DNA from: a virus | Lineage: Duplodnaviria > Heunggongvirae > Uroviricota > Caudoviricetes | Virus record (IMG/VR): IMGVR_UViG_2526164633_000045 | Coordinates: 1-40,069 of that record | Strand: one strand, 5' to 3' | DNA length: 40,069 nt | In this document: piece after piece, positions 21,817 to 33,481 of the stretch | How the letters are laid out: every line of letters begins with the position of its first letter | How positions within the stretch are numbered: position 1 is the stretch's first letter | Position numbers and translations under genes: made by a program | Notes under the pieces: generated by a model | What the model saw: only the letters and a program-made list of their open reading frames with translations | Told to the model about the DNA's origin: nothing | The model's database searches: none

Positions 21817-21892
21817 TGGTGCTGGTTAACGGACTTGAACCGCTACCCATTCGCTTACAAGGCGACTGCTCTACCATTGGAGCTAAACCAGC
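21817..21892 (-). tRNA. Candidate tRNA, anticodon TGT (Thr) by manual folding
   Basis: Minus-strand 76-nt sequence GCTGGTTTAGCTCCAATGGTAGAGCAGTCGCCTTGTAAGCGAATGGGTAGCGGTTCAAGTCCGTTAACCAGCACCA: perfect 7-bp acceptor stem, D-arm GCTC/GAGC with GG, T-arm AGCGG-TTCAAGT-CCGTT, anticodon loop CTTGTAA (one G-A mismatch at the base of the anticodon stem), encoded CCA. Confidence 0.65.
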
Positions 21893-21897
21893 ATATT

Positions 21898-21972
21898 TGG
21901 CGGGACAGCGTGGACTCGAACCACGATAAGAAGGTTAACAGCCTTCCGTAATGACCTTTATACGACTGACCC
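21898..21972 (-). tRNA. Candidate tRNA, anticodon GTT (Asn) by manual folding; some non-canonical pairs
   Basis: Minus-strand ~75 nt GGGTCAGTCGTATAAAGGTCATTACGGAAGGCTGTTAACCTTCTTATCGTGGTTCGAGTCCACGCTGTCCCGCCA: perfect anticodon stem GAAGG/CCTTC with loop CTGTTAA, perfect T-arm CGTGG-TTCGAGT-CCACG, acceptor stem with one U-U mismatch, weak D-stem. Could be a degenerate or pseudo tRNA. Confidence 0.5.
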
Positions 21973-30020: not shown

Positions 30021-30737
30021 ATGGAAAATAAAAAATCACTGACGACAGAACAGCTCGAAGACGCTAAGCGGCTTAAGGCTTTGTATGAGTCAAAAAAGAA
30101 AGAATTGGGAATAACCCAATACTCAATCGCTGATGAACTGGGTATCACCCAAGGAGCGGTAGGGCATTATCTTAATGGCAGAAACGCGCTAAACGTTGAG
30201 GTCGCATCTGGTTTTGCACGTTTGTTGCAAGTCTCAATTGCTGATTTTAGCCAGTCAATTGCTGCCAAGGTTGCAGAACAGGCAGAAAGCCTTAAGAGCG
30301 ATGCCAACGTAAGGTATGCAGGGGAATACAGAGCAGGAAAGAGGTATCCGGTGTTAAGCAGTATCCAGGCTGGCTCGTGGTGTGAAGCATGCGAACCATA
30401 CACCATTAAAGACATAGATGTTTGGCTTGAGTCTGACGCGCATATTCAAGGTAATGCGTTCTGGCTTAAAGTGGAAGGTGATTCAATGACGGCACCGGTT
30501 GGGTTAAGCATTCCAGAGGGAACATTCGTTCTTTTCGATACCGGAAGGGAGGCGATCAACGGCAGCTTGGTCATAGCAAAACTTTCTGACTCTAACGAAG
30601 CAACATTCAAGAAGCTGATAATCGACGGCGGAAATAAATACCTCAAGGGACTTAATCCTGCATGGCCTCTCGTGCCAATCAATGGAAACTGCAAGATTAT
30701 AGGCGTTGCAATTGAGACAAAACTAAGGCTGGTTTGA
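30021..30737 (+). CDS. cI: CI repressor (LexA-like S24 autopeptidase family)
   Basis: 238 aa; N-terminal HTH (...LGITQYSIADELGITQGAVGHYLNG...), Ala-Gly cleavage site, Ser/Lys C-terminal domain (...EGDSMTAP...TFKKLI...); colinear with lambda CI; no RBS, consistent with a leaderless pRM transcript. Confidence 0.93.
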   Translation: MENKKSLTTEQLEDAKRLKALYESKKKELGITQYSIADELGITQGAVGHYLNGRNALNVEVASGFARLLQVSIADFSQSIAAKVAEQAESLKSDANVRYAGEYRAGKRYPVLSSIQAGSWCEACEPYTIKDIDVWLESDAHIQGNAFWLKVEGDSMTAPVGLSIPEGTFVLFDTGREAINGSLVIAKLSDSNEATFKKLIIDGGNKYLKGLNPAWPLVPINGNCKIIGVAIETKLRLV

Positions 30738-30754
30738 TCACGCAAGGGGCGATT

Positions 30755-31123
30755 ATGGTTGGAACCGCTATAGCAAGCTTTTTTGGGATGTTGGCAATCT
30801 CGACAATTTACGGCTTAGCGCATGCTTTTATTGCGAAATCTCTATCAGAAAAAATAAGCCAGGCTTGGGCGCATAGATCAGCTCGTTTCATGATTCTGGT
30901 GATCATAGCAATACAAGGGATATCTGCATTTATCCTCTATGGATCAAGCTTATACCTATTGTATCAAGGCGCGACATTTACGCCTTACACCAGTGATTAC
31001 GGAACTCTATACGATGGTAGTGAAGACATCACTGTGGCTTGGATCGTCTTTGGTTTATCTATGGCCGTGTCTGTTGTAGCAGACATCATTAAGGTAATTC
31101 TCGTCTTAACCTTCGCTGACTAA
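30755..31123 (+). CDS. Small inner-membrane protein co-transcribed with cI (rex-position accessory gene)
   Basis: 122 aa from ATG 30755 (AAGGGG RBS); ~4 predicted TM segments (MVGTAIASFFGMLAISTIYGLAHAFIA..., FMILVIIAIQGISAFILYGSSLYLL..., VAWIVFGLSMAVSVVADIIKVILVL); no similarity to RexA/RexB noticed. Confidence 0.6.
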   Translation: MVGTAIASFFGMLAISTIYGLAHAFIAKSLSEKISQAWAHRSARFMILVIIAIQGISAFILYGSSLYLLYQGATFTPYTSDYGTLYDGSEDITVAWIVFGLSMAVSVVADIIKVILVLTFAD

Positions 31124-31209: not shown

Positions 31210-31296
31210 AATATCCTTTGTATTCATTTGCTTATCATTATTTCACCAAAAATAAATACCTTGGGTATTTACACAATAAAATACCTACAGTATTCT
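31210..31296. promoter_or_regulatory. OL operator cluster and candidate pL promoter
   Basis: AATATcctttGTATT (~31210-31224), AATACcttggGTATT (~31255-31269), AATACctacaGTATT (~31280-31294); plus-strand TTTACA-17-TATTCT overlaps the last site and points toward N. Confidence 0.65.
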
Positions 31297-31342
31297 TTAG
31301 CCATCAGCAGGGCGCTGGAAGCCAAACGGAACAGATTGGCAG

Positions 31343-31383
31343 GCTCTTTAACATTGATGGGATTGTCCCGCCGAAATGCGGGA
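31343..31383 (+). promoter_or_regulatory. nutL-like site: boxA (GCTCTTTAACA) plus boxB hairpin (TCCCGCCGAAATGCGGGA)
   Basis: Same boxA and boxB sequences as the nutR candidate, located between pL and the N gene. Confidence 0.75.
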
Positions 31384-31490
31384 ACCAAAGAGTAGTTGGC
31401 TTTGGGGTGACGTGAAGTGCAGCTGCACGACGGCAACCGGAAGATAAGCACCCGGCGCGTCACCGCCAAAGTCAATCATCGGAGGTCAAC

Positions 31491-31763
31491 ATGACAGTAG
31501 TCATTACATATCTGGCTGACGATAACGCCAGAAATCGCCGCAGAGCACGCAGACAGGCTCAACGTGAACAGGCAATGCAAGAGCAGCGACTGGCACGAAA
31601 AATTGCGCTAAAGCTCTCTGGTTGCGTCAGAGCAGATAAAGCAGCATCACTCGGAAGCCTTTGCTGCAAGGAAGAAGATGAACGCAGTGGAAGTATTTGC
31701 CTGCCAAACGTAGCCATTTACGCGGCAGGATACCGGAAATCAAAACAACTGACAGCGAGGTAA
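31491..31763 (+). CDS. N: Antitermination protein N (P22 gp24-like)
   Basis: 90 aa; N-terminal arginine-rich motif (NARNRRRARRQAQREQ) and C-terminus ...LPNVAIYAAGYRKSKQLTAR closely resembling P22 gp24. Confidence 0.85.
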   Translation: MTVVITYLADDNARNRRRARRQAQREQAMQEQRLARKIALKLSGCVRADKAASLGSLCCKEEDERSGSICLPNVAIYAAGYRKSKQLTAR

Positions 31764-31766
31764 GTG

Positions 31767-31991
31767 ATGAATCAGACATACATTCCATCATGCTTGAGAA
31801 ATCTGCCAAAGCAGAAAGCAAAGCCCCGCAAGCAAGCCATAAAGGACGCTAAGGCAGAGGTTATTGATCAAGCAATACAATTGCTCAGGGAGGAGTTAAG
31901 AAGTGGCAAGCTCGAAGGAATGATGATGCCCTATCAGCGCGGATATCTATCGGCGATTAGTAAGTTGGAAGTATTGAAGAGTGAATTATGA
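31767..31991 (+). CDS. Hypothetical early protein (74 aa)
   Basis: ATG at 31767 with GAGG upstream; the track ORF begins at the preceding GTG. Confidence 0.5.
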   Translation: MNQTYIPSCLRNLPKQKAKPRKQAIKDAKAEVIDQAIQLLREELRSGKLEGMMMPYQRGYLSAISKLEVLKSEL

Positions 31992-32123
31992 ACTATCTGG
32001 AATTTCCGGATGGTTCATTGTTTTGGCAGCAAACCACTTATTTGAGGTGATGTATGGAAGAATAATTTGAAGAGTTCGAAGAGCATCCTCAGGATGTGAT
32101 GGAACAATACCAGGACTATCCGT

Positions 32124-32324
32124 ATGACTACGACTATTGATAAAAATCAATGGTGTGGACAATTCAAGCGATGCAATGGATGCAAGCTGCAATCGGAATG
32201 CATGGTTAAGCCTGAAGAAATGTTTCCTGTAATGGAAGATGGGAAATATGTCGATAAATGGGCAATACGAACGACGGCAATGATTGCCAGAGAACTTGGT
32301 AAACTGAACAACAAGGCTGCCTGA
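32124..32324 (+). CDS. ral: Ral-like restriction alleviation protein
   Basis: 66 aa, MTTTIDKNQWCGQFKRCNGCKLQSECMVKPEEMFPVMEDGKYVDKWAIRTTAMIARELGK...; matches my recollection of lambda Ral in size and sequence; stop codon sits in the loop of the downstream terminator. Confidence 0.75.
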   Translation: MTTTIDKNQWCGQFKRCNGCKLQSECMVKPEEMFPVMEDGKYVDKWAIRTTAMIARELGKLNNKAA

Positions 32325-32343
32325 TGGCGGCCTTTATTTTTGG
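32313..32343 (+). terminator. Intrinsic terminator after ral
   Basis: AAGGCTGCC-TGAT-GGCGGCCTT hairpin followed by TATTTTTGG. Confidence 0.75.
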
Positions 32344-32389
32344 CATAAACAACAGAATAAACACAGCACTGAATTATTTGAGGTGAGAT

Positions 32390-32860
32390 ATGACAAAATC
32401 ATGGAGCGTACCTTTTCCTGAATCAGAAACTGAACATGATGGAATGCCTGTTTTCTGGAGATTCCAAGCGACAGTTGAAGAAGATGGAATCAAAATATTC
32501 GCACTTCAATATATAGCTTTTCATCAGACAGATCATTATGCATGGTTGGTTCCTGCGCATTGGATTGTTAATTTTAAACCAGCACCAAATCAGTGGTTAC
32601 AGGAATGGAAACAAAGGAGAAATAGATATGCAATTAAGAAAGTAGCAAAAAATGCCGAAAGATCTTTTGCATTCCCGACGAAGAAACTTGCCATTGAAAG
32701 TTTATTGCGCCGGAAGAAGTACCATTTAATGAGAATCAAACAAGATTTGGCTGTTGTATCAACTCTTGTTGATGGGATGAAGAATATTGATACATCAATA
32801 CCAGATATTGAATATAACTTTGGACACAACCAAGAAACAGAAAATTGGGTGTTTTATTAG
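32390..32860 (+). CDS. Hypothetical soluble protein (156 aa), AT-rich moron at the sieB position
   Basis: ATG with GAGG upstream; visibly AT-rich coding sequence; bounded by intrinsic terminators on both sides; no recognisable family motifs. Confidence 0.6.
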   Translation: MTKSWSVPFPESETEHDGMPVFWRFQATVEEDGIKIFALQYIAFHQTDHYAWLVPAHWIVNFKPAPNQWLQEWKQRRNRYAIKKVAKNAERSFAFPTKKLAIESLLRRKKYHLMRIKQDLAVVSTLVDGMKNIDTSIPDIEYNFGHNQETENWVFY

Positions 32861-32964
32861 TACGAATAAGCACTGTGTATTCATTCCAACGAGTGAATAC
32901 ACGGAGCAATGTCGCTCGTAACTAAACAGGAGCCGACTTGTTCTGATTATTGGAAATCTTCTTT

Positions 32965-32992
32965 GCCCTCCAGTGTGAGGGCCTTTTTATAT
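32965..32992 (+). terminator. Intrinsic terminator after the 156-aa gene
   Basis: GCCCTC-CAGTGT-GAGGGC hairpin followed by CTTTTTATAT. Confidence 0.7.
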
Positions 32993-33054
32993 GCATACCA
33001 ATAACGCTTCACTCGAGGCGTTTTCGTTATGCAATCAAACAGAAGGAGCATCCT

Positions 33055-33225
33055 ATGCAACAGTTCGCTATTGCAGGGGCGGCATCGGTTCGCCCTTTCA
33101 ACCCGATTTTATCGGTACAGCATTCACGAAAAAATATTTTAACCGGAGCAGACTTTAAACAACCAAGAATGAAAAGCTTGCTCGAAAAGCTTTGGGATAT
33201 TTTGAAACAACAAGGCCGCCCATGA
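33055..33225 (+). CDS. cIII: CIII-like protein (FtsH inhibitor family), tentative
   Basis: 56 aa from MQQFAIAGAASV... with ...MKSLLEKLWDILKQQGRP resembling the lambda CIII N-terminus (MQYAIAG...) and amphipathic core (ESLLERITRKLRDGWKRLIDILNQPG); AAGGAG RBS. Confidence 0.6.
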   Translation: MQQFAIAGAASVRPFNPILSVQHSRKNILTGADFKQPRMKSLLEKLWDILKQQGRP

Positions 33226-33392
33226 GTTTTACAGATAACTGGTCAGACGAAGAATTCATTCGTCAGATGAAAGAATTAATCGGTAACGAAGGAGATATTC
33301 ATGTCACTTGCAACCACCGTGAAGGAGAGCAAGTTACAGAGACGCATGTACACGCAGCAGGCGTTAATGTATCGCCAGAAGGGAGATCGTGA
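33222..33392 (+). CDS. Hypothetical small protein (kil-position)
   Basis: 56 aa from ATG overlapping cIII stop (ATGA); MSFTDNWSDEEFIRQMKELIGNEGDIHVTCNHREGEQ... Confidence 0.5.
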   Translation: MSFTDNWSDEEFIRQMKELIGNEGDIHVTCNHREGEQVTETHVHAAGVNVSPEGRS

Positions 33393-33481
33393 AGGTGTTC
33401 GCGTATTTTTAAATGCGGCAAAGACTGAAGTATTAAATCAGCGTTATTTCCTTGGGCCATGTCCATTCTGAGAACAATCAT

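Follow-up and report, generated by a model that had tools for sequence, protein, structure and literature searches.

The window analysed here, the whole 40,069-nt stretch of IMG/VR record IMGVR_UViG_2526164633_000045, holds a P22-like lambdoid phage that shares 95-97% identity in its structural genes with Kapi1, CUS-3, Sf101 and Huey. Its early leftward operon is arranged on the + strand in the order cI, pL-like promoter, nutL-like site, N, orf75, ral, ORF156 and cIII, and downstream of cIII follow two small overlapping open reading frames (ORFs), erf and an ssb-like gene (Table 1). The subject of the present study is ORF156, the frame of 156 codons between ral and cIII, for which the original prediction had proposed an acquired moron insulated by two flanking terminators. 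Matches of the two neighbours to Pfam PF11058 and to phrog_550, respectively, confirm the location of the gene.

The AT-rich and compositionally distinct character ascribed to the gene holds up in a windowed analysis. The G+C (GC) content of ORF156 is 36.1%, compared with 47.3% for the window and 42-50% for neighbouring genes, so that it ranks at the 3rd percentile when all 471-nt windows are considered, about 2.4 standard deviations under the mean, and its GC content at third codon positions (GC3) is 28.7%, compared with 37-50% in neighbouring genes. Among five ORF156 alleles, pairwise ratios of non-synonymous to synonymous substitution rates (dN/dS) are 0.03-0.09, as expected for a constrained protein-coding gene, and 42 columns are invariant across the orthologues from Enterobacterales. 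ORF156 is therefore a real gene under purifying selection.

The description of the protein as free of recognisable motifs is correct for Pfam, NCBIfam and PADLOC, where ORF156 gave no match beyond chance level in the first two and 0 matches in PADLOC-DB 2.0, but not for the PHROG profiles, since ORF156 is a full-length member of phrog_1636 (expect value (E) 1e-111, residues 1-156 versus profile positions 1-156 of 156). Along its full length of 156 residues, it shares 97-99% of its amino acids with HK97 gp45, 933W L0079, phi24B vb_24B_11c, Stx2 phage 86 orf57 and Min27 ORF20. The gene occurs in 83 phage records, mostly of Shiga toxin (Stx) phages of the Stx1a- or Stx2a-converting type, with the homologue at 97-99% identity in 79 of them, and all annotate it as "hypothetical". 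At 95-100% identity the cassette DNA is further found in 598 of 5426 complete E. coli genomes (11%), with up to four copies per genome; one genome, that of E. coli strain SD134209, holds an identical ORF156 copy in the same ral-ORF156-cIII-erf arrangement. Full-length orthologues of 55-83% identity extend to Pectobacterium, Brenneria, Rosenbergiella and Symbiopectobacterium. Literature on vb_24B_11c, HK97 gp45 and L0079 was sought by name and by protein accession, and no paper mentioning them was found. ORF156 belongs to an already catalogued but uncharacterised family, of which the present copy is an ordinary member that adds nothing new.

The limits of the inserted DNA were determined by BLAST of positions 32200-33300 against eight related phages and were then confirmed on the sequences. 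In the compared phages, homology breaks sharply at 32371/32374 and at 32869/32870, so that the insert comprises an 18-nt leader with the Shine-Dalgarno sequence GAGGTGA (32380-32386), ORF156 and another 9 nt. The hexamer GCACTG stands at both ends of the insert (32366-32371 on the left, 32864-32869 on the right), and in the empty slot of lambda, mEp506, mEp234 and mEp235 position 32371 joins 32870 at 96-100% identity with a single GCACTG. In HK97, phi24B, Huey and H-19B, this block is shared from 32374 on (left joint 32373/4) and directly follows N. As the gene is an insertion or deletion (indel) relative to related phages and is atypically AT-rich, we regard it as an acquired accessory gene. 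The surrounding 901-nt backbone is matched by 333 phage records, compared with the 83 that carry ORF156.

Table 1. Features of the slot between ral and cIII and of the early leftward operon (positions refer to the window; dG, predicted folding free energy in kcal/mol; HTH, helix-turn-helix).
Feature	Position	Strand	Evidence or remark
ORF156 coding sequence, 156 codons	32390-32860	+	phrog_1636 (HK97 gp45 / 933W L0079 / phi24B vb_24B_11c family)
Inserted cassette, 498 bp	32372-32869	+	indel relative to the empty-slot phages lambda, mEp506, mEp234, mEp235
Conserved backbone spacer ending in left GCACTG	32343-32371	+	contiguous with 32870 onward in lambda, mEp506, mEp234, mEp235, CUS-3
Terminator T1, 9-bp GC-rich stem 32313-32334 plus TTTATTTTT	32313-32342	+	dG -16.5; overlaps ral stop codon
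Conserved backbone hairpin, 14-bp stem	32870-32907	+	dG -21.7; 97-98% identical in lambda and other empty-slot phages
PreS (LPR1) homologue including terminator tL2a	32904-32991	+	85/88 identical to lambda 34011->33924
tL2a, 6-bp stem 32965-32982 plus CTTTTTAT	32965-32990	+	dG -10.7; downstream terminator of the original prediction
cI	30021-30737	+	Peptidase_S24 plus HTH
pL-like promoter TTTACA-17-TATTCT	31268-31296	+	consensus scan; between cI-linked genes and N
nutL-like site	31342-31383	+	read by eye from sequence
boxA-like GGCTCTTTAACA	31342-31353	+	part of nutL-like site
boxB-like hairpin TCCCGC-CGAAAT-GCGGGA	31366-31383	+	part of nutL-like site
N-type antiterminator gene, 90 amino acids	31491-31763	+	Pfam N_peptide PF25694, E 5e-15
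ral (restriction alleviation)	32124-32324	+	Pfam Ral PF11058, E 2e-48; 98.5% identical to lambda Ral
cIII leader, hairpin at 33003-33022	32993-33054	+	79% identical to lambda immediately upstream of and into cIII
cIII-like gene, 56 amino acids, downstream border of slot	33055-33225	+	phrog_550 CIII, E 1e-22

Comparing the slot among related phages, as had been proposed, proved informative, as it lacks the ORF156 cassette in the four phages named above and can be filled by other ORFs. The interval between ral and cIII holds PreS and ea10 in lambda and ORF78, ORF67 and gene 17 in P22. Within the same bounds, T1 on one side and PreS-tL2a on the other, lie lambda Ea10, gp17 of P22 and H-19B, a 140-amino-acid membrane ORF of CUS-3 (phrog_3054) and a 322-amino-acid ORF of mEp234 and Huey. 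All of these are unrelated to ORF156, which co-occurs with Ea10 in 933W and phi24B and with gp17 in H-19B. The CUS-3 ORF, at 1435-1857 of the compared CUS-3 sequence, is AT-rich (38% GC) and hydrophobic, and it is inserted at T1 with a copy of the terminator on either side, from which it follows that the hot spot takes several unrelated cassettes. Judged from these alignments, the ral-cIII slot is a mosaic hot spot with fixed boundary sequences. The leader motif TTATTTGAGGTGA has a second copy at 32038, ahead of a three-codon remnant ORF upstream of ral, which is consistent with its use as a recombination linker. That remnant reads ATGGAAGAATAA (M-E-E-stop) and resembles the stump of a deleted cassette, because the CUS-3 ORF begins with MEEQ.

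The close homologues in HK97, 933W, phi24B, Stx2 phage 86 and Min27 share the leader and the downstream PreS block with the window and are always co-directional with pL. They differ in their upstream neighbour, since the homologues of the HK97 gp45 group directly follow N, whereas the window copy, like that of the phi296/phi367-type Stx phages, directly follows ral, here with T1 in between. One could speculate from the position after N, found in HK97, 933W, phi24B, H-19B and Huey, that ORF156 regulates the lysis-lysogeny decision or early transcription, either together with N, cIII or Kil or by acting on RNA polymerase or Rho. To our mind this is improbable, as the orthologues of Pectobacterium and Brenneria (57-63% identity) lie far from N, in an early-left unit just upstream of xis-int, and distant relatives occur in phages that have no N-type antitermination; what speaks for such a regulator is position together with fold hints below threshold. 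The placement in Pectobacterium and Brenneria rather indicates that the conserved feature is membership in the early-left operon and not the exact slot.

Terminator-like hairpins are present both upstream and downstream of ORF156, as had been noted, at the ral stop codon (T1) and at tL2a. A terminator scan returned 10 sites in 6.5 kb, compared with a chance expectation of 5.9 +/- 2.5, and in mEp234 and HK97 the positions homologous to the two hairpins carry the annotation of a rho-independent terminator. The insert, however, includes neither of them. Both are present in empty-slot phages, where the sequence that holds them runs on without a break at 96-98% identity, and in mEp234 the T1 sequence, annotated as such a terminator, precedes the empty slot. 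In the sequences compared, T1 and tL2a thus belong to the shared phage backbone and form boundaries of the slot, and the idea of an insulated cassette is not supported. T1 itself varies between phages: the 9-bp hairpin is perfect in the window and mEp234, degenerate in lambda (34098-34070; dG -5.3) and replaced by a different stem in mEp235 and CUS-3 (dG -9.7), while the U-run and the 29-nt spacer behind it are conserved in the window, mEp234, lambda, mEp235 and CUS-3.

The downstream boundary of the slot is, at the same time, the gene of a small RNA (sRNA). LPR1, renamed PreS, is an Hfq-dependent sRNA of about 88 nt that is encoded between ral and ea10 of lambda, ends at tL2a, is made in the lytic cycle only and activates dnaN translation; the experiments on Hfq binding and dnaN activation were carried out in lambda only (bioRxiv 10.1101/2024.10.31.621285). 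With the lambda limits 34011->33924 as set by primers P1103 and P1104 of that work (bioRxiv 10.1101/2024.10.31.621285), the window and lambda share the terminator hairpin, and the seed region is unchanged, because the three mismatches are confined to the 3' U-tail and the positions adjoining it. Rfam returned no family at gathering score for the region, and PreS had no Rfam match. What differs is the upstream neighbour of PreS, which is ral in lambda, whereas in the window ORF156 intervenes. Between the end of ORF156 and the 5' end of PreS lie 43 nt that hold the conserved 14-bp hairpin, and through this insertion PreS becomes the 3' untranslated region of ORF156. Since the terminators are backbone and tL2a is the end of PreS, ORF156 is not a self-contained moron.

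Classical lambdoid morons were defined from the comparison of HK97 and HK022, and examples are HK97 gene 15 and lambda bor and lom. The designation fits ORF156 insofar as it is an extra gene of deviant AT-rich composition that is absent between the same flanks in close relatives. It does not fit insofar as ORF156 has neither a promoter nor a terminator of its own, lies inside an early operon under antitermination and is probably silent in the prophage. A consensus scan of the + strand from 31296 to 33228 gave no sigma-70-like promoter, and the 18 nt of the cassette that precede the ATG leave no room for one. The gene is co-directional with N, with the pL-like promoter, which is presumed to be the transcription source of the whole early-left operon, and with a site that resembles boxA/boxB and that we take to function as nutL; scanning the window for the boxA consensus gave no information, as the 29 matches hardly exceed the 27.9 expected. 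Considering that no promoter was found, that the leader is so short, that the strong T1 lies upstream and that lambda PreS is lytic-only, transcription would be expected to come from pL by way of N antitermination and not from the prophage. On the simplest reading, ORF156 would hence be a gene of early lytic growth or induction.

This bears on the view, suggested by the original prediction, that ORF156 is expressed from the prophage and protects or modulates the lysogen, be it by superinfection exclusion or by host modulation. Its AT-rich composition and indel status fit acquired morons, the gene is very common in E. coli prophages with its up to four copies per genome, and gene 17, located in this region of the slot in P22 and H-19B, carries the annotation of a superinfection-exclusion protein. 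We nevertheless give such a role little credence, given that no promoter was found in the cassette or upstream of it, that both terminators, including the strong one directly upstream, stem from the backbone, and that the homologous lambda backbone is silent in lysogens. In addition, the fold occurs in strictly virulent phage families, 71 family members had no PADLOC match above chance, and the protein is not membrane-bound, unlike SieB. Contrary to what had been assumed, the gene does not lie at the sieB/esc position either: sieB is found between N and orf28/ral in lambda (NC_001416, 34482-35036, +) and between gene 24 and ral in P22, in both cases opposite to pL, whereas ORF156 follows ral on the pL strand. 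SieB and ORF156 are alike in being accessory genes of the lambdoid N-ral-cIII neighbourhood, but the ORF156 product is soluble and unrelated in sequence to SieB (no Pfam or NCBIfam match at E <= 1 above chance).

The ORF156 protein has a mass of 18.6 kDa, an isoelectric point (pI) of 9.07, seven tryptophans and no cysteine. Its solubility, which had been claimed, is supported by the lack of any transmembrane segment in the hydropathy profile (maximum Kyte-Doolittle 19-residue mean 0.71, grand average of hydropathy -0.55). Charge is distributed unevenly along the chain: residues 1-60 are acidic (pI 5.0), residues 75-131 hold 16 lysines or arginines in 57 residues (pI 11.1), and the last 25 residues are again acidic (pI 4.05). 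K84, K87, R91, R107, K109 and R115 are invariant among the orthologues, and K87 is kept at 90% or more across an alignment of 71 superfamily sequences. With this alignment, AlphaFold2 gave a model with a predicted local distance difference test score (pLDDT) of 95.6 and a predicted template modelling score of 0.83, after a run on 19 close orthologues with a pLDDT of 52 had been discarded. In the model, residues 19-30, 33-46 and 50-55 form three long antiparallel strands; the other elements are two short helices, a short strand at 83-86, a helix of 33 residues (98-130) and an ordered C-terminal tail. A reading of the RSFAF-helix segment as a DNA-binding module of the AP2 or integrase-arm type could not be substantiated.

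Remote-homology search and structure prediction, the other checks proposed for the gene, yielded the phrog_1636 match and a confident fold that has no neighbour in the PDB. Profile searches against PDB sequences reached a best E of 0.43 to 1.1, and Foldseek of the model against the PDB gave a best E of 0.88. The fold is hence a confidently predicted one that has no solved relative. An exhaustive profile search collected 83 cluster representatives, which are mostly stand-alone proteins of 130-160 amino acids at 18-28% identity; they belong to phrog_13631, 25384 and 28215, families to which no function is assigned. Two hits of this hidden Markov model search, P0063 (940 amino acids) and P0075 (444 amino acids), are repeat proteins and were rejected as spurious. 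Scans of the 71 superfamily members against Pfam, NCBIfam and PADLOC produced scattered chance matches only, with the PADLOC ones isolated and at E>1e-3. Among predicted viral structures, Foldseek found 13 uncharacterised phage proteins at E <= 1e-3, including proteins of Schitoviridae (Achromobacter phiAxp-3, Delftia RG-2014) and Ackermannviridae (Erwinia phiEa2809), both of which are strictly virulent families. The anti-phage role that had been considered thus finds no backing, as nothing links the protein to defence, PADLOC is negative and structural relatives occur in virulent phages.

The genomic surroundings of the distant homologues usually contain genes of DNA metabolism. On one contig the neighbours are a DNA polymerase A, a dCTP deaminase, a 3'-5' exonuclease, a PD-(D/E)XK nuclease and an SNF2 helicase; other neighbours are RecE (Vibrio phage), a YqaJ exonuclease (Brenneria) and ParB-like plus RusA proteins (Bas81). 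DNA methyltransferases are encoded 2-5 genes away in Pantoea phage Nafs113 and Pseudomonas phage Medea1. Together with the adjacency to ral in the window and in phi296/phi367-type Stx phages, the latter observation would suit a counter-defence protein, that is, an early pL product that neutralises a restriction or abortive-infection system of the host in the manner of the adjacent Ral or of Gam/Abc2, which are encoded farther downstream in the operon. Relatives in virulent phages would be in line with such a function, and the patchy presence among otherwise near-identical phages (83 versus 333 records) is typical of arms-race accessory genes. We consider this explanation unlikely all the same, albeit less so than the two discussed above. 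No similarity to a known anti-defence protein or fold emerged from the sequence and structure searches, the protein is basic and not an acidic DNA mimic, and the association with ral or methyltransferases is confined to few loci. Moreover, the low dN/dS values and the near-identity of the cassette across 598 E. coli genomes are unlike a fast-evolving arms-race locus.

From our point of view, the evidence is best accommodated, with moderate confidence on our part, by a promoter-less early accessory gene that is read from pL and encodes a protein with a basic and conserved centre. In the lytic cycle this centre most likely binds nucleic acid or a factor that handles it. In this scenario a single-gene cassette, equipped with neither promoter nor terminator, would have recombined between the ral terminator and the PreS gene of a P22-like lambdoid phage. 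Its transcription would require both firing of pL and passage of N-modified RNA polymerase through T1, which would restrict it to early lytic growth or the time after induction, and PreS would form the 3' end of its mRNA. The predicted product is soluble, with an acidic N-terminal beta-sheet, a very basic centre composed of a beta segment, a loop and a long helix, and an acidic tail folded back against the body. Its most probable activity would be the binding of nucleic acid, or of a host or phage factor acting on it, by which it could serve phage DNA transactions or host takeover in the lytic cycle.

Expression timing, nucleic-acid binding and biological role are the parts of this scenario that we infer, and several points weigh against them. 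The proposed binding draws on charge distribution and gene neighbourhood only, and these neighbourhoods are heterogeneous and amount to about ten loci. The membership of virulent phages in the fold family depends on matches between predicted structures at 12-23% identity. Finally, a weak promoter may have been missed by the consensus scan, or low-level read-through may occur in lysogens.

Some further observations concern the neighbourhood of the slot. The interval between N and ral (31764-32064, +) is occupied in the window by orf75 (phrog_5305) and not by sieB, and a 14-bp terminator-like hairpin (31988-32018) follows orf75. The cIII-like gene gave no match in a Pfam scan of 33055-33225, its assignment being that to the phrog profile. 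The two small ORFs directly behind it overlap in different frames (33222-33392, phrog_2123; 33301-33471, phrog_1723), an arrangement also found for 42/42.1 of HK97. Between cIII and erf, where HK97, mEp235 and CUS-3 have kil, the window showed no kil-like ORF. Upstream of the pL-like promoter, a hydrophobic ORF of 122-129 amino acids (30734-31123, +; phrog_6534; 27 hydropathy windows >= 1.6) occupies a rexAB-like position. Its probable start is the ATG at 30755, and the longest frame, from the TTG at 30734, overlaps the cI stop codon. Being likely co-transcribed with cI in lysogens, this ORF is a better candidate for a prophage-expressed exclusion or conversion gene than ORF156; its positional counterpart in phage Huey is annotated as "PagP". 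Elsewhere in the window, adjacent genes for tRNA-Thr(TGT) and tRNA-Asn(GTT) lie at 21817-21972 (-).

Overall, the present study corrects the anatomy of the ral-cIII region, in which accessory ORFs are exchanged as bare cassettes between fixed boundaries, one of them being the PreS sRNA gene. It further draws attention to a strongly constrained and unstudied protein family, whose fold, confidently predicted and with no solved relative, appears to reach into virulent phages, and to ORF156 as a very common prophage gene that the main Shiga-toxin phages carry in their early operon. A broader possibility, which we put forward only tentatively, is that phrog_1636, 13631, 25384 and 28215 constitute one phage-wide family with a new fold and a new activity. 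ORF156 would be its best-sampled member and, as an early factor that binds nucleic acid, would either block a defence or a nuclease of the host or reshape the host's DNA or RNA metabolism. If this were true, it could have an effect on how Shiga-toxin phages such as 933W and phi24B are induced, on their burst size or on their host range.

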